A DNA stretch of 64,000 nucleotides from a virus. The DNA lies in the IMG/VR virus record IMGVR_UViG_3300023179_000016, positions 1 through 64,000 of that record. The stretch is one strand, 5' to 3'. Within the stretch, counting starts at the first letter, position 1. Every line of letters begins with the position of its first letter. Below are positions 13,347 to 64,000 of this stretch, piece by piece. Both the position numbers and the translations under genes were made by a program. The notes under the pieces were generated by a model that worked only from the letters and a program-made list of their open reading frames with translations, was not told where the DNA came from and searched no databases.

Positions 13347-13763
13347 TTAGAGATGGGATGGGGACTCAAGAAATTTCTTGAGTCCCTTTATTTTTTCTTC
13401 TACAAAATATTTGTCGTTGAGCTTCCTGTTTCTTCCTGATGGGTGCGGCATATGATAAAAGCTCAACTGTAGCAGTGTCAATGCCCTTGCAGCGCTATTG
13501 CCCAACGCTATTAATTTATAGTTGTTGCGCTCATCTAATGATTTTTTAAGTCTAATCGCAGACTCCCTTATGTCTTTTGCCGACAGAGGCTTATTATCTT
13601 TAGTTTTAAGATCGCTTAGATTAAGATACTCTATAGATAGTTCTACATCTAATCTTTTTATCCATGAATCTAATACCCTCCTAGATAGAGTATCGTTATC
13701 AAAAGGTCTATTAGTAGAGGAAGAATTGCTGGGATTTGAACCGATAAAGATTATTCTTGTCAT
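13347..13763 (-). CDS. Uracil-DNA glycosylase-like superfamily protein
   Basis: FIGSNPS, IALG and HPSGRN motifs. Confidence 0.7.
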   Translation of the reverse strand: MTRIIFIGSNPSNSSSTNRPFDNDTLSRRVLDSWIKRLDVELSIEYLNLSDLKTKDNKPLSAKDIRESAIRLKKSLDERNNYKLIALGNSAARALTLLQLSFYHMPHPSGRNRKLNDKYFVEEKIKGLKKFLESPSHL

Positions 13764-17283: not shown

Positions 17284-17826
17284 TTAGTAAGGTAGACCTA
17301 TCTTAAGCAACAAAAAATCTTTGCCGTTGTTTGGTTCTTTTATTCCAGCATTTGATATGTGCTTGTAACATAGACTTATATTCGTACCGTTATTAGAATC
17401 TTTTATACCAATGCATACATCGTGAAAGAATTGAAAGTTAGACCCTAAATTATTGTCAGTTCTCCCTATCAGGCCGATACCATTAGCCAATGAGGCAATT
17501 AATATGTCGTTTGTTATTGTTGTTCCGAGCTGGATAGAGCCGTATGGATTATAGCCGATAGCATCCTTGTTTGGAAACATCCACATGCCAGTCTCCATCG
17601 ACCAATCGATGGTATTAAATGGTCTTATGTCTAGAATCTTATCTTTGTAGCCCAAAGATATTATCCTAGTGCTGGATGTGTTTCTAAGATCCATTCCGTT
17701 CTTTATGAACGTCTCGGATGCTTCAGACGTAGGAACTATCGATAGGATTGCGGTGATAGCTGCGACGATGAATATTAGTCGCCACTCTCTATTTCCCACA
17801 TGGTCTCTTCCAAGTTTGAGTGCCAT
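17284..17826 (-). CDS. pagL: Lipid A 3-O-deacylase (PagL / acyloxyacyl hydrolase) family outer-membrane protein
   Basis: Signal-like N-terminus, LGSNFQF, YKHISNAGIKEPNNG catalytic His-x-Ser motif, aromatic C-terminal residue. Confidence 0.75.
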   Translation of the reverse strand: MALKLGRDHVGNREWRLIFIVAAITAILSIVPTSEASETFIKNGMDLRNTSSTRIISLGYKDKILDIRPFNTIDWSMETGMWMFPNKDAIGYNPYGSIQLGTTITNDILIASLANGIGLIGRTDNNLGSNFQFFHDVCIGIKDSNNGTNISLCYKHISNAGIKEPNNGKDFLLLKIGLPY

Positions 17827-27019: not shown

Positions 27020-28402
27020 TTATCTCCTTGAGCTAGAGTCTGGAACTTTAACAGTCTCACCGATTCTCTTCAGCGGATGATCCTCGGTGCCGTTCTTACT
27101 GATGATCCATAGAACTTGCGGAAATTGTTCTCCGGGTTTGAGCCATGACTCATATTCTACGTCGCCGTAGCAACCGTCTGTAATGATGATGCTGAGATCG
27201 CCTCTGCGCTTCATTACGTCTTGTAGCGTCTCCGTTAGATCTGTTCCGCCGCTCTCGATCTGCGATCTATCGATCTTGGTACCCATCTTATACGATTGAC
27301 GACCGTACGCAGCCGTGTGGAAGAAGGACATATTGCACTTGCGAGCGCCCACCTTCAAGAATTGATCTACAATCTCTAGGAATTCGTTTAATTCTTCGAT
27401 TGAGACCGAACCAGACGTATCGAGGTGTAGCTCGAGTTTGGGTAGTTCGCCGACCTTAGTACCTGGAGCCTTGAAACCAAATCGCTTAGATTTTCTAGTC
27501 CACGTAGATTTGCGATCGTGCCCTGCAGCATGCTTCTTCATCGCAGACATGATGAGGGCACGATAGTTGAGTTCTGCCCTGCGCGTCTTGATGTCGTCGA
27601 GCAATTCCTTTACATGGCCAGGCATGTCATCGTACGATAGGCGAGCCTTCACCATGGCGCGCTTGACTAGCTCCTCTGTGGCGTCAAGCATATCTTTTTC
27701 TTCTGCTGCGCCATCCCACATGTGCTCGTCCAGAGTCTGAGGAATATCACTTGATTCTGTTCCGCCGCCAGAGTTACCTTGTCCATCGCCCGACTCTTCA
27801 TCTGGATCGTCGAATCTCTTGATCAGGCGCTCGTAGTATGTCTCCATGGTCTGGTTTGCAGGCCACGGAATCTTAGCATTAGTTTTCTCGTCGAGGTCGA
27901 AGAAGTCTGCAACATCGATGCATCGACCCGGGCACATCTCGTTTGGACATTGCTCCATCTTTTCTGGAGGAGGGCAGGCAGCGCACCCTTTGGGAATGTC
28001 CTTGATGAACTGATTGATTGCCATATCGGCCGCGACATTCATGAGCATCCGCTTTCGGGCAGAGATCTTCATGAACGGTACGCGAAGTGGATGCTTATGC
28101 GTGATATGAGAGAGTTCATGTATTAGGACAGCCTTGCGCTGTGGACCTGTCAACTTCCTGCAAAAGAAAAATGGATTGATGAGCATGTCCCAACGTTTAG
28201 CATCTGTATTAAACAAGATGCCTGCAGTCGGCAGAGTGTGCGAATAAGAGATAGTTAGACATTGCAGAACAGACCCGAGGAATGGGTGTGTCTTTGATGT
28301 CTCGTAGATCGCGGTGGCCAGACATTGAGTCTTCTCCTCCACGGTGACAAACTCTTTGTCCATTATATCTTTGGTTATGTTAGGCCTAATTCTAGACGAC
28401 AT
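27020..28402 (-). CDS. VWA domain / putative metallopeptidase (DUF2201-like)
   Basis: HELSH, AADMAIN, DTSGS MIDAS, GGTD, ITDG; SD AAGGAG before ATG 28402. Confidence 0.85.
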   Translation of the reverse strand: MSSRIRPNITKDIMDKEFVTVEEKTQCLATAIYETSKTHPFLGSVLQCLTISYSHTLPTAGILFNTDAKRWDMLINPFFFCRKLTGPQRKAVLIHELSHITHKHPLRVPFMKISARKRMLMNVAADMAINQFIKDIPKGCAACPPPEKMEQCPNEMCPGRCIDVADFFDLDEKTNAKIPWPANQTMETYYERLIKRFDDPDEESGDGQGNSGGGTESSDIPQTLDEHMWDGAAEEKDMLDATEELVKRAMVKARLSYDDMPGHVKELLDDIKTRRAELNYRALIMSAMKKHAAGHDRKSTWTRKSKRFGFKAPGTKVGELPKLELHLDTSGSVSIEELNEFLEIVDQFLKVGARKCNMSFFHTAAYGRQSYKMGTKIDRSQIESGGTDLTETLQDVMKRRGDLSIIITDGCYGDVEYESWLKPGEQFPQVLWIISKNGTEDHPLKRIGETVKVPDSSSRR

Positions 28403-28440
28403 ATGGCTCCTTTTATAGATTATAATAAAATCGGATAAAG

Positions 28441-28481
28441 CAACATGCCCGGAACTGGGAGGAGTAGTTCCGGGCATGTTG
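28441..28481. promoter_or_regulatory. 16-bp perfect intergenic hairpin with an anti-SD-like loop
   Basis: CAACATGCCCGGAACT-GGGAGGAGT-AGTTCCGGGCATGTTG. Confidence 0.6.
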
Positions 28482-42875: not shown

Positions 42876-42894
42876 TCATGCAACTGTAGCAGTG

Positions 42895-43323
42895 TCAGCC
42901 CGCGGGAACGTTCTTGCGGGCTGACTTTGCTAACTTATCACATGCCTCGTTATTCAAATCACCTGAGTGACTTTTGACCCATGTAGTCTGTAAATTTAAT
43001 TTAGAACTAAGCTCTTTCAATTCAAGATATAGAGTTATCAAATGTTGCGCCTTACACGAATAAGTGCCATCTGCGTAACCTAATACAAGTTTAGAATCAC
43101 TGATAAGTGAATATGTTTTCTTGTCAGAAAGATTCTTGCATATCTCTAATGCCTTTTTTAAACCTTCAATTGCGCCACGTAGTTCAGCAGAGTTATTTGT
43201 TGCATCTTTTATGTGCCCAGAATCTTCTGCAACTAATTTACCGTCTATTAATATTCTATATGCCCATCCGCCATTCTTAGTCTGCGTATTTCCAGATCCG
43301 TCAGAGTATATATCTACATCCAT
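42895..43323 (-). CDS. rnhA: Ribonuclease HI
   Basis: IYSDGS, GGW, TNN.AEL, SDS, WVKSHSG..NEACDKLA. Confidence 0.9.
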   Translation of the reverse strand: MDVDIYSDGSGNTQTKNGGWAYRILIDGKLVAEDSGHIKDATNNSAELRGAIEGLKKALEICKNLSDKKTYSLISDSKLVLGYADGTYSCKAQHLITLYLELKELSSKLNLQTTWVKSHSGDLNNEACDKLAKSARKNVPAG

Positions 43324-49997: not shown

Positions 49998-50073
49998 TGG
50001 TGGGCGAGGTGGGAATTGAACCCACTACCAAAGGTTTATAAGACCCCTATGCAAACCGGTACACCTCTCGCCC
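49998..50073 (-). tRNA. tRNA-Ile (TAT)
   Basis: GGGCGAG...GGGGT CT TAT AA ACCTT...GTGGG TTCAATT CCCAC CTCGCCC A CCA. Confidence 0.8.
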
Positions 50074-54052: not shown

Positions 54053-54757
54053 ATGGATAAATTTATAGATTGGTCCGAATGGATCCTGCAAAAAAACGAC
54101 GAATTCGCAAGCGAAGAGCTTAACAAGGCAAAAATATACGACATCAAGTCAAAGAAGAAGGTGGCAGATTTACCTTCTGACATTACACCAAAGCGCTCAC
54201 CAAAGTTAAAAGTCATTGACAAGCAAAAAGAAGAAGAAAAAAATAAAAAGTCAAAAGATGCAGACGACAAAGCCACACACAATACAACTCATTACAAATC
54301 TAGATTAAAACAATTACAAGAAAAGATAAAGCAGGTCGTAAAGCCTGCAAATGTACCAAATATATCACCGTCAAAGAAAGACAGTGATATGCTGAAAACT
54401 GAACGAGCAGAAAAGCAAAAAAAACAGTCTGATTTGCCAAGCGGACACTTGGACAGAAGAGATCAAGCAGCTAAGCCGCCAAGCGAGATAGCTAAGAAGC
54501 CAATAATCTCTAGAGTAAAACTACCAGAAGAAAAAAAGCTAGAGACCGAGTCTGTTGAAGAATTCAAGAGAAAGAGGATGGAAGATCTTAGAGCGGCTAG
54601 AAGTGTTCGAGATATCGGGGAAAGAGCCAAACAGTTGTCCGATAAAGAAACCATTATAAGAGATAGAGAAAAAGAAAAAAATAAAGTTGTAAAGACTGAA
54701 CTGTTAAAGACCTTACCGAACGGCCAGTGGGAATTACTCGAAAAAAAAATATGTTAA
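54053..54757 (+). CDS. Basic probable virion-internal protein (DWSEW and NGQW motifs)
   Basis: DWSEWILQKN..EELNKA at the N-terminus, LPNGQWELL at the C-terminus; TGGTATAAT 6 nt before the ATG. Confidence 0.6.
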   Translation: MDKFIDWSEWILQKNDEFASEELNKAKIYDIKSKKKVADLPSDITPKRSPKLKVIDKQKEEEKNKKSKDADDKATHNTTHYKSRLKQLQEKIKQVVKPANVPNISPSKKDSDMLKTERAEKQKKQSDLPSGHLDRRDQAAKPPSEIAKKPIISRVKLPEEKKLETESVEEFKRKRMEDLRAARSVRDIGERAKQLSDKETIIRDREKEKNKVVKTELLKTLPNGQWELLEKKIC

Positions 54758-54815
54758 TAACTCAGATGTTTCTGAGGGCTCTTGCGATTGCGGAGCTCAT
54801 GCTACGGGCTCAGAC

Positions 54816-55058
54816 ATGCACTCTGAATGGTGTGGCGGGTTAAAGTCTCCGCAAGACAGAGCAAAGGATCTTCAAGATAGACTTAATTCTATACAAGGGA
54901 TGAAGGGCGTGAGGCCTCACGATGTCGATAAAAAGGATTACGAGAAATGGGCGGAGACGGGAGACGACGGCGCTATTCATCATTACATGGGCAAAGACAT
55001 GAGAGAGATCTCTAGAGATGGTATGTGCACAAAATGCAAGGCCAAAAATGAGAGCTAG
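54816..55058 (+). CDS. Hypothetical protein
   Basis: H..WC and CTKC motifs. Confidence 0.45.
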   Translation: MHSEWCGGLKSPQDRAKDLQDRLNSIQGMKGVRPHDVDKKDYEKWAETGDDGAIHHYMGKDMREISRDGMCTKCKAKNES

Positions 55059-55075
55059 CCGCTGCATTTGGCGGC

Positions 55076-55103
55076 GTAGCGGTGTCAGCCGCGCGGCTGA
55101 CAC
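55076..55103 (-). terminator. Example of hairpin + GACACYGCYAC element at the 3' end of a minus-strand unit
   Basis: GTAGCG GTGTCAGCCGCGCGGCTGACAC between convergent genes; nine same-orientation copies in the window. Confidence 0.5.
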
Positions 55104-55114
55104 ACTCGAGCAAG

Positions 55115-55333
55115 TTATTCCTCTTCAGTGTACGGGTTGGAGAAGTCCAGCGCGCCAATAAATCTGGTGGCTAGTACAACTTTAGGTCTTGGAATAACCT
55201 CAACCTCTTTCACGTTCACCCTAATTTTCTTGTGATTATACAGCTGCACCAGCAGATTTTCATCTCCAATAGAGTTTAGAACTTTTGCTTCGGACCCTGA
55301 CCAAATGCCGGACTTAATCTTGATCTTCACCAT
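55115..55333 (-). CDS. Small KOW/SH3-like hypothetical protein
   Basis: IKIKSGIWSGSEAKV pattern. Confidence 0.5.
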   Translation of the reverse strand: MVKIKIKSGIWSGSEAKVLNSIGDENLLVQLYNHKKIRVNVKEVEVIPRPKVVLATRFIGALDFSNPYTEEE

Positions 55334-55343
55334 TCGCTGACCC

Positions 55344-55592
55344 TCACTCGGTTGCTTCGCTGTTGTAATTGCGCTGCTGCAGCTCTTCCATGAATCTAGT
55401 ATATGACTTTACGTGTCTCTTGAAGAGAGGGATCGCTTCGTCCCACTTCTCGTCTCCGAGAGCGCACTCGGTCTCTATTACATCTGTCACGAAAGAGATT
55501 GCTTCCGCGTCTGACCCAACCTTCCAAGAAGAAGAAATACCCTTGTTGCTGAGAATGTCATTAACCTGTTCTGCTTTGTTGCTGTTGCTCAT
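55344..55592 (-). CDS. Hypothetical protein
   Basis: Promoter motif at 55614-55626; SD GGAGG. Confidence 0.6.
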   Translation of the reverse strand: MSNSNKAEQVNDILSNKGISSSWKVGSDAEAISFVTDVIETECALGDEKWDEAIPLFKRHVKSYTRFMEELQQRNYNSEATE

Positions 55593-55755
55593 TAGAGCCT
55601 CCCGTTACTTGGAATAATAGATTCGGTTTTTAGAACTATTTATCTTCGTCGTTGTCGTCTGGGATGTTGGGCGCTAGACAGATAGTGATGATCAGCATGA
55701 TAGCCATCAAGATTAGTGGCGCTGCCTCTGATGCCTTGTCTTCCATGTTGATCCT

Positions 55756-56106
55756 TTAGGGAAGATAAGAGAAATGTATCTGCTCTTCTCTCACTTCGCG
55801 GCTGCACTCGCCGCATTTAGTTTCTCTGAGCAATACGGGATCTCGCTTGATTCCGGTGCCGCCGCAACTCTTGCAGACATTAGATTTTAAGCTGCTGATC
55901 TCCGCTCTCAGCGCTTCATTCTCGAGCTCCAATAGTCTCACATGCCACTCGCGGCACGCACATGCGTTGTGGTGGGAAGTGCACTTCGGAATTTGTCTCA
56001 GTTCTTGCGGTAGAGAATTGAGATCGCACTCGCAATCCAGCACTAGATTGCAACCTGGACACGCCTCATTATACATATAATCACTGTTGGACTTGTATGA
56101 CATCAT
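55756..56106 (-). CDS. Cys-rich hypothetical protein
   Basis: Several CxxC motifs and LENEALRAE; SD AGGAG. Confidence 0.6.
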   Translation of the reverse strand: MMSYKSNSDYMYNEACPGCNLVLDCECDLNSLPQELRQIPKCTSHHNACACREWHVRLLELENEALRAEISSLKSNVCKSCGGTGIKRDPVLLRETKCGECSREVREEQIHFSYLP

Positions 56107-56136
56107 TTTCTCCTGTTTGGTTGTTATATTCAGTTT

Positions 56137-56391
56137 TTAATCGGCGAGCTCGAACTTCATCGAGTTGATCCTCTTCACTGGAACCATATACCAGCTGGCG
56201 GACAAACCGGACAGGAAGAATGTTTTGCTGACAATACTCCAGTAGATGTAGGATTTAAAGTTCGGATTATCGTTAAACATGCCCATAAGATCATCACCGG
56301 ACTTCTCTTCGAGACCGATCATGCGAGCTGCTTCTCTGGGATCGACGGTGGTACCATCTTTGAAGATAACTTTCGTGAGTCTTGACTTCAT
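56137..56391 (-). CDS. Hypothetical protein
   Basis: SD GAGGAG. Confidence 0.6.
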   Translation of the reverse strand: MKSRLTKVIFKDGTTVDPREAARMIGLEEKSGDDLMGMFNDNPNFKSYIYWSIVSKTFFLSGLSASWYMVPVKRINSMKFELAD

Positions 56392-56636
56392 TTTTCTCCT
56401 CGACTTAAGAGGTTCTCAATCACTATATTAACTCAAAATACACTACTATCCCACGTGTTTTTATCGTGTCGGTATAAATTACCCATGGAATGGTTGAAAT
56501 GGTTCTTAGTGATACTGGCAGCAGATGTGTGCGCGAGCCTCTTAAAGGAAAGCAATTGGAAGAGATTATTCAAGAAGAAGCGCAAGCGCAGCAGGTCTCG
56601 CAAGGTCGCTCAGATTATACCCCTCAAAAAGGTGGA

Positions 56637-56849
56637 TTAGATCTTCCTGTCCGCGCACTCGTCGCAGCCTTGAATCTCATTGGAGAACGAGTTGCACTCC
56701 TTGCACGACTCAGCCCAGTATAGGTCCACGATGTTCCCCAAGTCCTCGACCTGCACAGAGCACGCCACCGTCGCATTATTCATCTCGTTGTACGGGACGG
56801 CCTCATTCGACTCAAACTCCACGATGATTCTATACTTGGGCATGATCAC
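56637..56849 (-). CDS. Hypothetical protein
   Basis: MPKY start shared with 56846-57037; C-terminal CxxC pair. Confidence 0.55.
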   Translation of the reverse strand: MIMPKYRIIVEFESNEAVPYNEMNNATVACSVQVEDLGNIVDLYWAESCKECNSFSNEIQGCDECADRKI

Positions 56850-57037
56850 TTCACCTTCTTGATGTTGAGAACTTCCTCGTTGAACTCAATATTTTTGTAG
56901 TCGTACTCCACTTCAGACATGGACTTGCGCTTTGAGACCCCGCCGTAGATCTCTGCCGCTCCCCTCTTGGATTTGGCCTTTATGTACCTCACGGAATAGA
57001 TGGTCTGCTTCACTCGGACAGCATACTTCGGCATCAC
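56846..57037 (-). CDS. Hypothetical protein
   Basis: GC3-rich coupled ORF. Confidence 0.55.
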   Translation of the reverse strand: MMPKYAVRVKQTIYSVRYIKAKSKRGAAEIYGGVSKRKSMSEVEYDYKNIEFNEEVLNIKKVK

Positions 57038-57245
57038 TCGACTCTCGCCCCTTTATGAGTTGGTCTCTGCGCATGCCGCGATGTGCTGCGCTACGTCCTC
57101 ATCTACGCCCCTCTCTCGCTTCTCGGCCAAGGAGTCTGCGTCGCACCTGCCGCAGGTCTTGACATCGTAACCCTTGAGCCTCAGAAAGAGAGCTTCGCAC
57201 CTCTCGCACGTATGCTTCACGAACGTCATACCCAAGTACTCCATA

Positions 57246-57392
57246 TCACTCCTCCTCGCAAGAGAGCTCAAACGTCTTCTTGTGCTTGACCCGGTCCTTC
57301 TTCAGGGGGTGGACCTTGCTGGGCAATGGTTCCACCCTGGGTCTAATCCTTGGGCGCTTAATCTTCAGGGTGATCTTCTTCATAGAAGACAT
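57246..57392 (-). CDS. 48-aa basic protein, not in the ORF track
   Basis: MSSMKKITLKIKRPRIRPRVEPLPSKVHPLKKDRVKHKKTFELSCEEE*; SD GAGG. Confidence 0.5.
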   Translation of the reverse strand: MSSMKKITLKIKRPRIRPRVEPLPSKVHPLKKDRVKHKKTFELSCEEE

Positions 57393-57420
57393 AGTGCCAC
57401 CTCATCCTTTCGTTATAGGT

Positions 57421-57711
57421 TTACAGCTCGAACTCCCCAACCTTGGGATTCGAACTCGAATTATAGCGGATCCAGGAGCTGCAGGAGTTGCACCTGACAG
57501 TGACGGGGTCGTAGCGATGGACGTACACGTCGGGGGACCCGCAAGCGTAGCAGCTCCTAGAGCAGTAGATGATGTCGATCAGAGCCTCCATAGTGGTCTT
57601 CTCCTCGCTGTGCTTGCCGCAGGAGGTGCAGGTGAAGATGTACGGGTCGCCCACCGTGTACTCGTCGTCCATACCAATATAGACATTGCAGTGGCGGCAG
57701 TAGATCTTCAT
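57421..57711 (-). CDS. Double zinc-ribbon protein
   Basis: CRHC, CTSC, CYAC, CNSC; SD GAGGAGG; promoter motif at 57740-57752. Confidence 0.65.
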   Translation of the reverse strand: MKIYCRHCNVYIGMDDEYTVGDPYIFTCTSCGKHSEEKTTMEALIDIIYCSRSCYACGSPDVYVHRYDPVTVRCNSCSSWIRYNSSSNPKVGEFEL

Positions 57712-57850
57712 AGGTCTAAATCCTCCTCGATTCCAGCGGATATAATCTCGGGGAAAAGTCGACCGCGCAGAAAAGAGAAGTCCACGCACGTCCCTCATAG
57801 ACACACGTGGACCTCTCTATATCAGCCGGGCTCGCGACCCAACAACCAAC

Positions 57851-58333
57851 TCACTCGCCAGACGTTGCCGTCGGAGCAAACTTGGCAGCGAGCTCCGGGG
57901 GCAGAGCACTGAGGTCGATCGTCGGCTGCTTGGACCGAGCGATCTCGGCGACCCGGGCATCGATGTGGGCCTGGACCTCAGCCCGGTCAGTGACGTCGGT
58001 GAGCGTTCCGAGCAGGGCTCGAAGAGCCTTGAGCTGCGGATCACCAGAACCAGAGCGAGAGCCAGGGTTCTTAGCCACATATGCGACCCCACCGTTCAGC
58101 CGCTTGTCCTTTCGGAGCCAGTTGCTCTGCAGGCCAGAGACATAGGCCTTCAGCTGCTGGTCGGTGAACTCCGTATCGAGCTCGATAGCTCCACCGCGGA
58201 ACCCCTCGAACAGGATCTGGTTCACCATGGCCCGCTCCTCACGGGACATCTCGACTGCACTCGAGAACTCGGTAGTTCCCTTGACGTTGACGACTGCACC
58301 ATAGACTGCTTCTTTCTGACTCATCTTGCTCAT
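57851..58333 (-). CDS. QKEAV/NWLRKDxRLNGG paralogue family protein
   Basis: QKEAVY...NWLRKDKRLNGG...IDLSALPPELAAKF. Confidence 0.85.
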   Translation of the reverse strand: MSKMSQKEAVYGAVVNVKGTTEFSSAVEMSREERAMVNQILFEGFRGGAIELDTEFTDQQLKAYVSGLQSNWLRKDKRLNGGVAYVAKNPGSRSGSGDPQLKALRALLGTLTDVTDRAEVQAHIDARVAEIARSKQPTIDLSALPPELAAKFAPTATSGE

Positions 58334-59322
58334 AACTAACGTTCCTCCGTTGTTGTTCTATAAGATCGGGATATCGGTCACCACGACCGGTATCTTCACC
58401 TATGGGGTGTTCGGTACTCACTCAAAACTGGCTACTTCCGCGTCTGCTGTGGCTACCTACTGCTTGCCGCCTGCCTCCACTGGGGAGAGCTCCACTCGCG
58501 CTACTCCCTGCTCTCTACATCATTACCACCTAGATATATGTTCGGGATAATGGGATGTCGTGTAAGTCGCTGATACTATTGGTGGGGAAGGTTGGTGTGG
58601 AAGGGGTGTAACGGTGCCCACCTGAGTCACACTGAGTCTGACCCGACCTGCACGTCGCACTCACCGAGACTCCCCGATACCCGTCCAGACAGCCGATCGG
58701 GCTCGTGAGGTCATAGGCTCGGCTGCACCCGACAGCCGGCGTAGCAGTGTCGGCGCGCGCTGAAAAGCAGTGGGTAGGGCAAGCAGCCGCTATTATATAG
58801 CCCGGCCAGGGCCATGTGCTGCCAGATCCCTACCCACGGACGCTTGTTGATCCCTTACTGCCTGAGTCTAGCCGTCGTCAGACAGGTCACCAACCTGTTA
58901 CGACCTCTAGATCGTTTCGGCCTTGGAAAGACTCACGTATCCGGGTACGGTTTTGAGAGCCACCCATCATACATATTCAGCAGGAGACAGAACCGTACAA
59001 GATTCTCCTACCGGTTAGACAATACATCCCGGTACTTCCGTCTAACAAGAGTACCGGATTTACCCCTCACTTTACCCGGACTAGGGACCGGTCACCGATA
59101 AGTGTCCTGGCTAGGACCACCGGTGAGTGGAAAACTGACTTACTTTCTGAGGCAGATGATCGGGAGCAGCGCGCGTGTTTCTGCGCCGAGAAGAAAAGCT
59201 ACGAGCGCATGACAGAAAAGCGTCTAATCCTACCAAGGCGGGCGCCGGGAATTGACCCGCCCACCCAGCGACCGCCCGATAAACCGCTGTTTTTTGAGCC
59301 TAGCTAACCTCCGGGGCGTGGC

Positions 59323-59592
59323 TCATTTCCCCTCCAGCGCGGCGCGGGCAATACTTGGCAATGCACAATCACAGGACTTCCCAAATTGAATGTCGCACCG
59401 TTCATGGTGAATGGTCAGATATTGCTTCAGCGCCTCCCGAAGCCTGGCGTTTTCAGCGCTGACTTCCTCGATTGCGACACGATACCCAGCCAAAAACACT
59501 TCTATGTCAATGTGCATTACAGATGCGTCTTTCTGATAGGCTGGGAATCGCTGCTTTAGATATTCTTCTGCCAGTTTTTCGGCTCTAGTCAT
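59323..59592 (-). CDS. Array unit 5 (ENARLREAL...ARAALEGK)
   Basis: Start codon supplied by the preceding repeat (GGAGGGGAAATGA). Confidence 0.7.
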   Translation of the reverse strand: MTRAEKLAEEYLKQRFPAYQKDASVMHIDIEVFLAGYRVAIEEVSAENARLREALKQYLTIHHERCDIQFGKSCDCALPSIARAALEGK

Positions 59593-59792
59593 TTCCCCTC
59601 CAGCGCGGCGCGGGCGATCGATGCGCCACAAAGACAACCAGCGGTATAGTCACAACCTTCATCATGGGCGGCAAATCTTTCCAGCGCCTCCCGAAGCCGG
59701 GCGTTCTCGGCTTCCATTTCGGCTCGTCCGGATTCGTAACCCTGTTGCCATCCTGAGCACGTTCCCTTGCATGGGTGATTCAGCTTGTTCAT
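59589..59792 (-). CDS. Array unit 4
   Basis: ENARLREAL...ARAALEGK. Confidence 0.7.
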   Translation of the reverse strand: MNKLNHPCKGTCSGWQQGYESGRAEMEAENARLREALERFAAHDEGCDYTAGCLCGASIARAALEGK

Positions 59793-60019
59793 TACTTCCC
59801 CTCCAGCGCGGCGCGGGCTTCAATTACTTCCTGTCTAAGTTCATCCCAAGCCTGACCTAGCTCTTCGTCCAGCAGAAGAGCCTCATCCACTTTATTGGTG
59901 ATCTTGCGAAGCGCCTCCCGAAGCCGGGTGTTTTCGGCTAAGAATCGATTCCTGGCCTCTTCAAATCCCCGCAACCACACCAATTCATCCGGACTTCCCG
60001 CCTCAGGTCTTGTGCTCAT
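59792..60019 (-). CDS. Array unit 3
   Basis: ENTRLREAL...ARAALEGK. Confidence 0.7.
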   Translation of the reverse strand: MSTRPEAGSPDELVWLRGFEEARNRFLAENTRLREALRKITNKVDEALLLDEELGQAWDELRQEVIEARAALEGK

Positions 60020-60233
60020 TTAGTTTCTCCATAACATTGGCAGGGAGCATCTTTTCGTCTTCTAAAAAGACGTAATCGTACCCATCCGCGTGTTTCATCA
60101 GGTCTTCTTTTAACGAGCGAATGTCGGAGCTTATCCACTGTCCTAGAACCTGACCGTCTTCAGTGACACACACACCAACCACGTCCCAACCCGGGCTGGA
60201 CCCAAAGATCGGAAATCCATAAGCCTTCTTCAT
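60003..60233 (-). CDS. Non-repeat gene embedded in the array
   Basis: MKKAYGFP start supplied by repeat A; lacks both motifs. Confidence 0.6.
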   Translation of the reverse strand: MKKAYGFPIFGSSPGWDVVGVCVTEDGQVLGQWISSDIRSLKEDLMKHADGYDYVFLEDEKMLPANVMEKLNEHKT

Positions 60234-60565
60234 GCTTCCCTCCCCTCCAGCGCGGCACGGGCTGCACACTGCAGGCACCCCTGGTCGGAATAGCTGCACC
60301 GCTCATCGTGCCCACGGACCATTTCTTTCAGCGCCTCTCGCAGTCGTGCATTCTCAGACCGAAGCATAATTACCTCGTTAAGCCACTGCGGTGGCTCAAT
60401 AATGAGGTAAGACATACCCGCCCTTGTCCCCGGTGGATCGGACAAATGAATTTGTAAAGGCTCTGATGAGGCCAGTACGCAAGCATGGTCCTGAAGCGTG
60501 TTCAGTGAAACTTCTGCACCGCAGCGGGAGCATTTCCCAATTTTGTCGTTTGTAAAAAGGCTCAT
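60230..60565 (-). CDS. Array unit 2
   Basis: MSLFTN...ENARLREAL...ARAALEGREA. Confidence 0.7.
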   Translation of the reverse strand: MSLFTNDKIGKCSRCGAEVSLNTLQDHACVLASSEPLQIHLSDPPGTRAGMSYLIIEPPQWLNEVIMLRSENARLREALKEMVRGHDERCSYSDQGCLQCAARAALEGREA

Positions 60566-60804
60566 TTCCCCTCCAGCGCGGCGCGGGCGATATTTCCGAG
60601 CGTGCAATCGCAGAATCGAGCAGCGTCCAGCGGTGGGTTATCCCGCGAGGCGCAATCGTGGAAATGCGTGTAAGCGTACTCCTCCAGCGCCTCCCGAAGC
60701 CGGGCATTTTCAGCTTCAAGCTCTTTCATTTTTGTAGTGACTTCTTGGTTATACCGATCGGCAGAATCCAGCATGTCCTTTGTGAGATCCAATTCATCCT
60801 TCAC
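60562..60804 (-). CDS. Array unit 1
   Basis: SD AAGGAG then GTG; ENARLREAL...ARAALEGK. Confidence 0.7.
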   Translation of the reverse strand: MKDELDLTKDMLDSADRYNQEVTTKMKELEAENARLREALEEYAYTHFHDCASRDNPPLDAARFCDCTLGNIARAALEGK

Positions 60805-60993
60805 ACAAACGCTCCTTTCCGAAACTGGGGACTGGCCGCCTTATCCTTTTCCGGAGAGAGTTATGTGTGACACTACTACTCTTCGATGAAGTTTCACGAT
60901 CTTACGCGGCACCGCAGGCACTTCAAGCCTTCTGGGCCATTATATCACACTGTGCGAGATCTGTGGAGCTCTACGTAGGTGAGACTCATGGTA

Positions 60994-61206
60994 TCAACCC
61001 TTGTCTTTGCCGAGGCTGATGGGCAGCAGAGCCATCATCTCGGCGATGACCTGCTCGTCGGTCATCGGAGTGAGCTCGGGATTGGGCGTGAGCTCGGCTG
61101 GCACGTTCGGCCAGGGATACGAGGTCATCTTGAAGGGCTTGCCGGCCGCGACGCCGTACACGGTCTGTGTCTCTGTCTCAGAGTTGTAGCACGAGAGGTA
61201 TCTCAT
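60994..61206 (-). CDS. Hypothetical early-region protein
   Basis: SD AGGAG; GC3-rich codons. Confidence 0.6.
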   Translation of the reverse strand: MRYLSCYNSETETQTVYGVAAGKPFKMTSYPWPNVPAELTPNPELTPMTDEQVIAEMMALLPISLGKDKG

Positions 61207-61242
61207 ATCTTTCTCCTGTTGAGATTTAGGATCGGGATGGGT

Positions 61243-61404
61243 TCAGAGGTCCTCGACCAGATACTCGCCCTCGATCTCCAGCTCGACTGCGTAGCCCTGC
61301 TCGAGGTACTTATCTCCCACCTCGAGTGCCTGGTCGTAGGAGTCAAACCTGATGCTGGCGAACCTGGAGCACTGACCGATCTCGCGGACGTGGATGGTGT
61401 ACAT
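61243..61404 (-). CDS. 53-aa protein, not in the ORF track
   Basis: MYTIHVREIGQCSRFASIRFDSYDQALEVGDKYLEQGYAVELEIEGEYLVEDL*; SD GGAGG; promoter motif at 61425-61438. Confidence 0.65.
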   Translation of the reverse strand: MYTIHVREIGQCSRFASIRFDSYDQALEVGDKYLEQGYAVELEIEGEYLVEDL

Positions 61405-61528
61405 TCATATCCTCCATACATGGAATTATATGATCGGGATCGGGTGGGATTCGGTTATATAGTCGGCGTGGCGGTGTCGGTCGGCGAGCAGCCGGGCGGA
61501 GCTTCCTTGCTCCGCCTGCTCACTCAGG

Positions 61529-61879
61529 TTACTTGGAGTAGGCGACCACACCGTACAGTAGTCCGTTACCGGAACCATCGACTGGTTCGTCGACCATCTT
61601 GTATCCGAAAAGCTCCATGTTGTAGTTGAGTGCGTCGAGCATGTGGTCGATCCACTCGTTGAGTTCATGAGCATCGTCGGGTTTCAAGCCGTCGTCTGCG
61701 TAGTCATAGTGGACGACTATATCGCCCAACTTTATTGAAGGAAGAACTCCGTAGTTAGAGATGTTGGTCGGATCGATCGCTTCGACATACATGCTGCCAG
61801 GCATGTCACACTTGGCCTGGTGCGGAGCAGTTGACTCGAGATTGCTCACCAGTTTCACTACGGTGTTCATGTTAGCCAT
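61529..61879 (-). CDS. Acidic hypothetical cassette gene
   Basis: Leader duplicated with that of 62668-62925. Confidence 0.7.
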   Translation of the reverse strand: MANMNTVVKLVSNLESTAPHQAKCDMPGSMYVEAIDPTNISNYGVLPSIKLGDIVVHYDYADDGLKPDDAHELNEWIDHMLDALNYNMELFGYKMVDEPVDGSGNGLLYGVVAYSK

Positions 61880-61945
61880 CAGGCAGACCTCTGGGTTATG
61901 AGTTAATTATTTAACCCATCGACAATTATATATAATGTCGGTAAT
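61876..61945 (-). promoter_or_regulatory. Promoter + hairpin leader + SD, duplicated at 62922-62995
   Basis: ATTACCGACATTATATATAA...GATG(A/G)GTTAAATAATTAACTCATAACC..GAGGTCTGCCTGATG in both copies. Confidence 0.8.
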
Positions 61946-62020
61946 GAGTTTACGGGTGGCGTAGCAGTGTCAGCGAGCAGCTGGGCGGAGCTTCCTTGCT
62001 CCGCCCAACCGCAGGTCAGC

Positions 62021-62488
62021 TCAGGCCTTGAACTTCGCGGCCAGCTCTGCAGGCAGCTGGCTGAAGTCGATGGCGGGCTTCGCGGGCTTGGCGATCTCGG
62101 CACTCCTGAGGTCGATGAAGTGCTGGATCTCAGCCCTGTCGGCCGGGTCAGTCACCGTGCTGAGCAGGGCCTTGAGAGCCTTGATCTGCGGGTCGCCAGA
62201 GCCAGAGCGAGCACCAGGGTTCTTGGTGACCCAGGTAGTCCCGCCGTTGAGTCGCTGGTCCTTGCGGAGCCAGTTGTTCACGAGGCCGACCACGTACTTC
62301 TTGAGCTCCGGCTCAGAGAAGTTGGCCTTGAGGGTGATCTTACCCTCCTTGAACATGGTGACCAGCTCCGAGTGGATCTGGGCCAGCTCAGACTTGCTGG
62401 GCGTGTGAGCTCCGTTAGGAGCGAACTGAGTGCAGAAGCAGCTGACGACATTGAAGACCGCTTCCTTCTGGTTCATTGCTGCGATCAT
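62021..62488 (-). CDS. QKEAV/NWLRKDxRLNGG paralogue family protein
   Basis: SD GGAGG before ATG 62488; NWLRKDQRLNGG...IDFSQLPAELAAKF. Confidence 0.85.
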   Translation of the reverse strand: MIAAMNQKEAVFNVVSCFCTQFAPNGAHTPSKSELAQIHSELVTMFKEGKITLKANFSEPELKKYVVGLVNNWLRKDQRLNGGTTWVTKNPGARSGSGDPQIKALKALLSTVTDPADRAEIQHFIDLRSAEIAKPAKPAIDFSQLPAELAAKFKA

Positions 62489-62667
62489 GCGGGTTTCCTC
62501 CGTTGGTTGGTTGTAGGTTCGGGCGCGAGCTGTAAACTCGAGCATCATGCGCTCGACATTTACAATTAGATATAAGATCGGGGGAAGTCGGTATGCGGCC
62601 GGCGTAGCAGTGTCACGGCGCGCGGACCAAAGGGTGGGGTCGTCCATGACCCCACCGTATCAGCGAC

Positions 62668-62925
62668 TCAACCGGTCAGCAGGTCGTTCCAGTCGACTGG
62701 TACGTAGCACTCGCCGGTCTCGCGGGCGAACTCGGATGGAGTGGGTTCGCGGCCGACTCGCACGTGCTGGTCGAGCTCCTCGATGTAGACGACCGACGGT
62801 TCGGAGTCAGTGACCTCATAGAAGTACTGATCAGCGTCCGCATCCAGCATCTCCCGCTGGATTCCCTCGTGGGTGACGAGGACGGTATAGTCGGTGCACG
62901 GCACAATAGAGATGAGTTTCACCAT
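62668..62925 (-). CDS. Acidic hypothetical cassette gene
   Basis: SD GGAGG; shared leader. Confidence 0.7.
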   Translation of the reverse strand: MVKLISIVPCTDYTVLVTHEGIQREMLDADADQYFYEVTDSEPSVVYIEELDQHVRVGREPTPSEFARETGECYVPVDWNDLLTG

Positions 62926-63084
62926 CAGGCAGACCTCCAGGTTATGAGTTAATTATTTAACTCATCATTCACTTTTATATATAATGTCGGTAATAGGACA
63001 CCAGGCGTAGCAGTGTCGGTGGCTCGAGCTACCGAGCCCGCTGCGGGGCGGAGCTTCCGTGCTCCGCCCCGACCCGCTCTTCGC

Positions 63085-63522
63085 TCAGCGCTTGCCGAAC
63101 TTGGCTGCGATCTCTGCAGGCAGCTTGCTGAAGTCGACCTTGGGTCGGTTCAGCTCGGCGATCCGAGAGTCGATGTGTCGCTGGATCTCAGCTCGATCCG
63201 TCGGGTCGGTGATGGTGCTGAGCAGAGCCCTGAGCGCAGTCAGCTGGGGATCATCGACTCGGGAGGACTTGGGTTGGTGATCGACCCCACCGTTCAGCCG
63301 CTTGTCCTTTCGGAGCCAGTTGTTGAGCAACCCTGAGACATAGTTGCTCAGCTCCTTGTCGGTGTACTCCTTCCTGAGCTCGATGCTCCCGTTCCTGAAC
63401 CCCTCGAACAAGACCTGACGGATGGTTCGGGTCTGCTCAGAAGTCGGCTCGCAGACGCCGACTCCATCGAACCCGGTGATCGCGACCACTGCCTGGTAGA
63501 CTGCTTCCTTCTGGTTCATCAT
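63085..63522 (-). CDS. QKEAV/NWLRKDxRLNGG paralogue family protein
   Basis: SD GAGGAG before ATG 63522; NWLRKDKRLNGG...VDFSKLPAEIAAKF. Confidence 0.85.
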   Translation of the reverse strand: MMNQKEAVYQAVVAITGFDGVGVCEPTSEQTRTIRQVLFEGFRNGSIELRKEYTDKELSNYVSGLLNNWLRKDKRLNGGVDHQPKSSRVDDPQLTALRALLSTITDPTDRAEIQRHIDSRIAELNRPKVDFSKLPAEIAAKFGKR

Positions 63523-64000
63523 GCGATGCTCCTCATGATCCATTGTAGGATCAGTTGACACATCCATGCGTCGGGTTGATTGATATGTAATGTCAGTACA
63601 ACATCACACATCAACATGTAAGATCAGTATTTAATTAAATACCAATCATTTACATATAGATATAAGATCGGAAATCGTCGGGAAGAGATCATCCGAAAAT
63701 AGGGCCCGCCGACCTCGACTTACAAGGGATCCCTAGAGTCGGGACCGGTACACGCTGCGCGAACGCTCTCTACATGCAACTTTTTATAAAATAGGGCCCG
63801 CCACCCTTGCTCCCTAATAGGTACAATTTAACCGGTACCTCTTTTGCCTATTATATAAAAATAAACTCATGAAGACCTATCATTTTAAGAAAGACAACGA
63901 GATACACTCTAGCATACCGAGAATAAAATTAACCGCTCTGCTTCTTCTCCTGAAGATAACGACGATCAAGGACCTAAACCTAGAACACATATGACACGCG

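Follow-up and report, generated by a model that had tools for sequence, protein, structure and literature searches.

Within the first 64,000 nucleotides of an uncultured phage genome (bases 1-64000 of the 153,399-bp IMG/VR virus record IMGVR_UViG_3300023179_000016, hereafter the window), we found four consecutive small genes on the minus strand, each followed by an RNA hairpin whose six-nucleotide loop reads ANGGAN (N, any nucleotide) and is closed by a C-G pair. Comparison with related phages showed that the loop and its closing pair (C-ANGGAN-G) are under purifying selection across an uncultured lineage of large myoviruses in which the stems change freely. We tentatively favor, with somewhat less than even confidence, a reading in which these are the 3'-end hairpins of early-gene cassettes resembling the PeSL cassettes of T4-type phages, their loop putatively recruiting a host protein of the CsrA type.

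Four hairpins with a conserved ANGGAN loop

The initial annotation of this region listed five CsrA-type hairpins, of which the first four (hairpins 1-4, Table 1) were recovered as strong structures on the minus strand at the places given, whereas the fifth was weak and not conserved. Hairpins 1-4, folded with 66-81 nt of context, were all present in the minimum-energy structures with GGA at loop positions 3-5 (z-scores -2.7, -3.5, -0.7, and -3.8), and they were shown to form as sense-strand RNA structures. The description of a C-G-closed ANGGAN hexaloop without a U-tract holds for each of them (4/4): no U-tract follows any of the four, and a terminator scan found nothing at these sites. They resemble Rho-independent terminators and 3' stabilizers in being GC-rich hairpins placed right after a stop codon, where relatives use UUCG or GNRA loops, and differ from such terminators in lacking the U-tract; canonical U-tract terminators occur elsewhere in the same genome (e.g., 123357-123383 and 143754-143785). 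Hairpin 5, in contrast to the other four, lies in the 5' leader of its gene, reaches a minimum free energy of -7.6 kcal/mol for a 51-nt stretch (z = -0.24), and is missing from the orthologous leaders of three related sequences (L004, L005, and L006 in our set). It resembles some 20 weak ANGGAN hairpins of 4-5 bp spread through coding sequence and is probably a chance occurrence, no different from this background.

The window had also been credited with three unrelated stems. Hairpins 1, 2, and 4 share the GGCGGAGC/GCTCCGCC core, so that there are only two independent strong stems, the second being that of hairpin 3, which is unrelated to the others; it was the relatives that supplied unrelated stems. 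Counting stems of at least 6 bp, the 10.3-kb GC-rich island in which the hairpins lie held four ANGGAN hexaloop hairpins against a mean of 0.14 and a maximum of 1 in 300 dinucleotide shuffles, an excess in line with the annotation. Over the whole genome, ANGGAN accounted for 6 of 401 hexaloop hairpins, and 5 of these 6 were on the minus strand at 61.5-63.6 kb.

Relatives were collected by three routes. A protein search with gene A (145 aa) gave three viral loci of identical layout, a hairpin-blind pattern combining the conserved box and promoter-like motif described below gave 36 viral loci on contigs of up to 177 kb, and protein homology gave four further contigs. A hairpin nearly always preceded the box in these relatives, with varied loops. 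Across 321 kb of their sequence, A.GGA. (dots, any nucleotide) was the top class among the sense-strand hexaloop hairpins with stems of at least 6 bp (27 of 341, about 1.3 expected, the next class reaching 10), and it was found in only 1 of 332 hexaloop hairpins on the antisense strand. These 27 hairpins were built on at least 15 unrelated stems (e.g., GAGCTC, GACCC, GGGAC, GGCGCT, GTGCAC, CAGGCC, and ACCGAC), with changes on both sides at all six inner stem pairs, which bears out the earlier suggestion of a loop conserved while its stems change. The class ranking is the unbiased statistic here because the hairpins entering the stem comparison were picked for their pairing and loop pattern.

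The closing pair, the distance to the stop codon, and the variation at loop positions were not used as selection criteria. A C-G pair closed 28 of the 31 ANGGAN hairpins of the lineage, vs. 108 of 412 (26%) other hexaloops, and 27 of the 31 started 5-21 nt past the stop of a sense open reading frame (ORF) of at least 50 aa, vs. 101 of 403 other hexaloops. Copies on identical stems varied at loop positions 2 and 6 only; position 2 was A in 12 cases, C in 9, U in 6, and G in 2, and G was the rarest letter at position 6 (3/28). When stop-proximal hairpins were sampled regardless of their loop (n = 140), 33 had ANGGAN, 9 UUCG, and 6 GNRA. ANGGAN predominates in the contigs G000, L004, L005, L026, L046, and L058, while L012 and L032 have one case each. 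Viral records rich in ANGGAN include, besides the present one, UViG_3300027541_000695, UViG_3300001848_000475, UViG_3300042691_036187, and UViG_3300024306_000745; UViG_3300006056_000098 is a relative of the UUCG type.

Allowing G.U pairs lengthened the stems by 98 bp in total on the sense strand and by 22 bp on the antisense strand, and several hairpins dropped to 0-4 bp without them. Many stems are therefore stable only when sense-strand G.U pairs are counted, indicating that selection acts on the sense RNA. As a control for the influence of the stem, we retrieved the 85 occurrences of GGCGGAGC-N6-GCTCCGCC in the viral collection: outside the lineage, only 3 of 82 copies had ANGGAN when both orientations were counted, which shows that the loop is not set by the stem. 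The initial 100 kb of Myxococcus phage Mx1, similar in GC content (55-57%) to the island, gave ANGGAN in 2 of 489 hexaloop hairpins, i.e., no enrichment.

These results bear on the possibility that the hairpins are purely structural and have no reader of the loop. They would then terminate transcription or stop exonucleases and would also offer patches of homology through which cassettes are shuffled, ANGGAN being kept by common descent and by gene conversion between cassette copies. Three of the four window hairpins indeed repeat one core, the UUCG and GNRA loops on equivalent hairpins point to stability as the common need, and the layout matches that of PeSL cassettes, in which the stem-loops serve as transcription terminators and promote recombination (PMC2839356). 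Descent cannot, however, explain how at least 15 unrelated stems all keep A1, G3, G4, A5, and the C-G pair while positions 2 and 6 are free; near-miss loops were not seen on shared stems, and the same stem shows no such loop preference outside the lineage. Nor is ANGGAN known as an extra-stable loop, which also counts against a structural role alone. This account agrees poorly with the loop statistics, and we consider it unlikely.

Other explanations were examined and ruled out. A DNA cruciform or an antisense structure was rejected since many stems require sense-strand G.U pairs, and RNase III sites since the stems have just 8-15 bp. Pairing of the loop with a downstream UCC in a pseudoknot proved inconsistent among copies. 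Shine-Dalgarno mimicry was dismissed on the variation within the loop, with position 2 free and G rarest at position 6.

In two unrelated, GC-rich viral contigs, an identical hairpin, TGGCGGAGC-AUGGAC-GCTCCGCCA, stands shortly past a stop codon, away from any box (L095:608-629 and L098:1675-1696). Such sequences suggest that 3' GGA-loop hairpins may also occur in other phage groups.

Candidate readers of the loop

The high-affinity target of CsrA/RsmE is an apical hexaloop of the form CANGGANG (PMC4894983), and the annotation was right to equate the phage motif with it. The hairpin loop with its closing pair, C-A-N-G-G-A-N-G, agrees with this site at every specified position, and several relatives carry C-AAGGAU-G, the core of the consensus RUACARGGAUGU obtained by systematic evolution of ligands by exponential enrichment (SELEX). 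Because of this full agreement, a protein of the CsrA/Rsm type appears to be the most likely reader. In the reading that we favor, the basic job of the hairpin would be to terminate early mRNAs or to protect their 3' ends, since relatives hold UUCG, GNRA, or other stable hairpins at the same position. The ANGGAN loop would be the recognition site of a sequence-specific RNA-binding protein, most likely the CsrA/Rsm-type protein of the host, whose binding would clamp the 3' hairpin and, as its main effect, stabilize abundant early transcripts; partial titration of free CsrA early in infection would be a by-product. The free position 2 and the rarity of G at position 6 argue against simple Shine-Dalgarno mimicry and fit the N of the CsrA consensus. 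The fuller version of this proposal, in which an uncultured lineage of large myoviruses marks its early-mRNA 3' ends with a C-ANGGAN-G hairpin that captures CsrA as a protective cap and so lowers free CsrA during takeover, is possible and is advanced here with some doubt.

The hairpins share with known CsrA/RsmE sites the ANGGAN hexaloop, its C-G closure, the short GC-rich stem, and the free position 2. They differ from them in position, the known sites being in 5' leaders where they overlap the Shine-Dalgarno sequence and the phage sites 5-21 nt past stop codons, and in number, each phage mRNA having a single site.

Several observations weigh against a CsrA-type reader. CsrA does not usually act at 3' ends; its dimers bind best to paired sites separated by 10-63 nt, and in the cassettes each gene has a single strong site, 400-650 nt from the next. 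CsrA (PF02599) is encoded neither by the phage itself nor by any of five related records. A search of bacterial genomes with the box-plus-promoter pattern yielded one genuine relative, the other matches looking like chance. This relative, a contig of 146.7 kb that had been binned with a Cytophagales metagenome-assembled genome (MAG), provides the only lead to a host; csrA was found neither in this MAG nor among the 61 genomes of the order searched, the MAG included. The orthologous genes of other relatives end in UUCG, GNRA, or other loops, and one orthologous hairpin without GGA is built on a GGGTGGAGC stem close to the GGGCGGAGC core of the window. The GGA loop is thus dispensable for the core function. 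Finally, the island looks imported, and its hairpins may be tuned to the host of the donor phage. To us, the comparison with relatives looks like a stable 3' hairpin being the shared requirement at the post-stop position and the ANGGAN loop an added, lineage-restricted feature.

Other features of the genome speak against the Cytophagales lead and point to a different Gram-negative host. The phage encodes a PagL-like lipid A 3-O-deacylase (17284-17826, minus strand; Pfam E-value 1.8e-12) whose nearest protein clusters belong to Pseudomonadota and Thermodesulfobacteriota; this enzyme would imply a Gram-negative host, with remodeling of the host lipopolysaccharide as a possible role. Shine-Dalgarno sequences precede 48 of 166 ORF starts, vs. 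8 of 166 control windows, and such frequent use is atypical for Bacteroidota. Because of the PagL-like gene, its clusters, and the Shine-Dalgarno usage, a Gram-negative host with CsrA is plausible but unproven.

The annotation had proposed that the hairpins together form a distributed sponge of the CsrB/RsmZ kind. As their principal function, the titration of host CsrA would be a special case of the reading that we favor. It can draw on the match to the CsrA site, on the four genes having their own promoter and a strong Shine-Dalgarno sequence and being likely sources of abundant early transcripts, and on the precedent of a target mRNA able to titrate CsrA (PMC4894983). The known antagonists, CsrB, CsrC, RsmY, and RsmZ as well as the mRNA leaders of Campylobacter jejuni flaA and Salmonella fim, likewise present GGA in hairpin loops on abundant transcripts. 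Sponges of the CsrB/RsmZ type are, however, noncoding RNAs with clustered sites at 10-63 nt spacing, unlike the phage transcripts, which carry theirs in 3' untranslated regions, singly and at the wide spacing given above. The window has four sites only, relatives swap the loop for UUCG, and an Rfam scan of 54500-64000 (E-value of at most 1) returned no Csr/Rsm family, the only hit being a sub-threshold Cupriavidus-1 elsewhere. The sponge thus fits poorly, and we judge it quite improbable as the principal function; recruitment of CsrA for stability, which the annotation had offered as an alternative, fits the anatomy better.

It is also conceivable, if somewhat unlikely in our estimation, that the same 3' hairpins are read by another factor, i.e., an endonuclease, an RNA-binding protein of phage or host origin, or a lineage-specific termination or antitermination factor, the agreement with CsrA being the coincidence of a short motif. 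The confinement of the motif to certain contigs of the lineage would fit a lineage-specific partner, and the lack of csrA in the only host lead points the same way. The cassettes also hold other lineage-specific signals, the GACACYGCTACGCC box and CCGA-N3-TATA, and for most island proteins no family is known. The search for a protein in this role gave no candidate, however: the phage lacks detectable CsrA, and T4 RegB (PF10715) was not found in it either. The gene family most often located upstream of the hairpins is present as well in relatives without GGA loops, and a chance match to all six specified positions in the site of a very widespread protein is unlikely. Taken as a whole, CsrA involvement is a good, testable hypothesis suggested by the motif and not an established fact.

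CsrA/Rsm proteins control motility, carbon flow, and biofilm formation, and CRISPR-Cas expression in Serratia, according to PMC8450108. A phage element aimed at CsrA would, if true, represent a new route of host takeover, the first phage-borne RNA element targeting CsrA, and a new way for CsrA to act, at 3' ends; in the literature searched we found no paper describing 3' hairpins of phage mRNAs as CsrA sites. Whoever reads the loop, the RNA motif is well defined and strongly supported by comparison (fixed post-stop position, fixed loop, free stems), and it marks a cassette system made of a hairpin, a 14-nt box, and an unusual promoter. The system seems to carry small early genes from one uncultured phage to another within a group that lacks close cultured relatives.

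Cassette architecture and genomic context

Each cassette is self-contained and consists, in order, of a CCGA-N3-TATA motif, a small 5' palindrome, a strong Shine-Dalgarno sequence, a short ORF, the 3' hairpin, and a GACACYGCYACGCC box. The window contains four consecutive cassettes, and the hairpin starts 5-13 nt past the stop codon in each of them (Table 1).

Table 1. Positions of the cassette features in the window.
Feature	Position	Strand	Description
Hairpin 1	61484-61523	minus	3' of gene D; inner 8-bp stem 61495-61516, GGCGGAGC-AAGGAA-GCTCCGCC, plus 7-bp outer helix; 5 nt past TAA 61529-61531
Hairpin 2	61977-62012	minus	3' of gene C; 15-bp stem with two G.U pairs, loop AAGGAA; 10-bp core 61982-62007, same core as hairpin 1; 8 nt past TGA 62021-62023
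Hairpin 3	62633-62656	minus	3' of gene B; 9-bp stem GGTGGGGTC/GACCCCACC, loop AUGGAC; 11 nt past TGA 62668-62670
Hairpin 4	63044-63071	minus	3' of gene A; 11-bp stem, CGGGGCGGAGC-ACGGAA-GCUCCGCCCCG, C-G closed; 13 nt past TGA 63085-63087
Hairpin 5	63557-63572	minus	5' leader of gene A; 5-bp stem including a G.U pair, loop AUGGAU
Gene A	63085-63522	minus	145 aa; MNQKEAV...NNWLRKDxRLNGG family; likely start ATG at 63522, GAGGAG ahead
Gene B	62668-62925	minus	85 aa; no family match
Gene C	62021-62488	minus	155 aa; gene A paralogue; 35 metagenomic homologues; no Pfam/PDB match
Gene D	61529-61879	minus	116 aa; no significant family match
Box	63004-63017	minus	GACACTGCTACGCC; after hairpin 4
Box	62601-62614	minus	GACACTGCTACGCC; after hairpin 3
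Box	61958-61971	minus	GACACTGCTACGCC; after hairpin 2
Box variant	61465-61478	minus	GACACCGCCACGCC; after hairpin 1
Further boxes	58738-58751, 55073-55086; core also 42886-42896, 13469-13479	minus	GACACYGCTACGC(C)
Promoter-like motif	63661-63671	minus	CCGA-tct-TATA; ahead of gene A
Promoter-like motif	62980-62990	minus	CCGA-cat-TATA; ahead of gene B
Promoter-like motif	62571-62581	minus	CCGA-tct-TATA; ahead of gene C
Promoter-like motif	61931-61941	minus	CCGA-cat-TATA; ahead of gene D
Promoter-like motif	61427-61437	minus	CCGA-tca-TATA; ahead of next small gene
5'-leader palindromes	~63625-63643, ~62535-62555, ~62935-62952, ~61891-61908	minus	GGTATTTAATTAAATACTG, TCGAGCGCATGATGCTCGA, GAGTTAAATAATTAACTC twice

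Genes A and C belong to a multi-copy family of 145-163 aa proteins with an invariant NNWLRKDxRLNGG motif, which is the commonest gene family upstream of ANGGAN hairpins. Its 35 homologues are every one metagenomic; no relative was found in Pfam, and a PDB profile search came back empty. A DNA search of the 2.7-kb hairpin region against cultured phages gave no match, and a protein search with gene C was likewise negative.

The box is 14 nt long, conserved, and begins 5-26 nt past the hairpin. The hairpin usually abuts the 5' side of the GACACYGCTACGC(C) box, and CCGA-N3-TATA follows 5-18 nt downstream with variable spacing. The box was not found in Myxococcus phage Mx1; it may be a promoter element for a split sigma, a processing site, or a termination signal. 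No promoter of the sigma-70 type was detected on the minus strand upstream of the cassette genes. The palindromes in the 5' leaders, one behind each cassette promoter, could be 5' stabilizers or operators.

By analogy of layout, the PeSL cassettes of the T4-type phages RB49 and phi1 (PMC2839356) are the closest architectural analogue. Both systems flank small genes of unknown function with a repeated stem-loop and an early promoter in a plastic region, both have the stem-loop after the stop codon and ahead of the following promoter, and both are patchily shared among relatives, the grammar of the present cassettes recurring in the 36 viral loci mentioned above. The differences are that the CCGA-N3-TATA promoter has no sigma-70 -35 element, that the cassettes have an additional conserved 14-nt box and a sequence-specific loop, and that this phage is not of the T4 type.

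The genome has about 38% GC, against 51-56% in the island of about 10.3 kb at 54.8-65.1 kb, where the small genes reach a third-position GC of 0.7-0.85. Searches of PHROGs and Pfam gave nothing significant for the island proteins. The island looks like an imported early-gene module. The hairpins lie inside it on the minus strand, immediately downstream of a divergent control region at ~63.6-64.0 kb. Two tandem elements of ~70 nt, each ending in GGCGGGCCCTATTTT, precede the first cassette promoter at 63690-63830 (minus strand). Both are kept in L005 and L006, with weak support for a consensus fold, and may represent a small RNA or a region bound by protein.

The phage is a myovirus with tail sheath, GroEL, SbcC-like, and UvsX-like genes. 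Among cultured phages, Myxococcus phage Mx1 is its closest relative, with 27-34% identity in the terminase, sheath, and GroEL; the capsid protein shares only 32-34% identity with those of SPO1-like phages.

Two further features of the window lie outside the island. A tRNA-Ile with anticodon TAT (49998-50073, minus strand), an isoacceptor unusual in bacteria, is located beside tRNA-Leu(TAA) and tRNA-Arg(TCT). At 28441-28481, a perfect 17-bp hairpin presents on the minus strand a CUCCUCC loop resembling an anti-Shine-Dalgarno sequence, and its stem includes the ATG of a DUF2201/VWA metallopeptidase-like gene (27020-28477).

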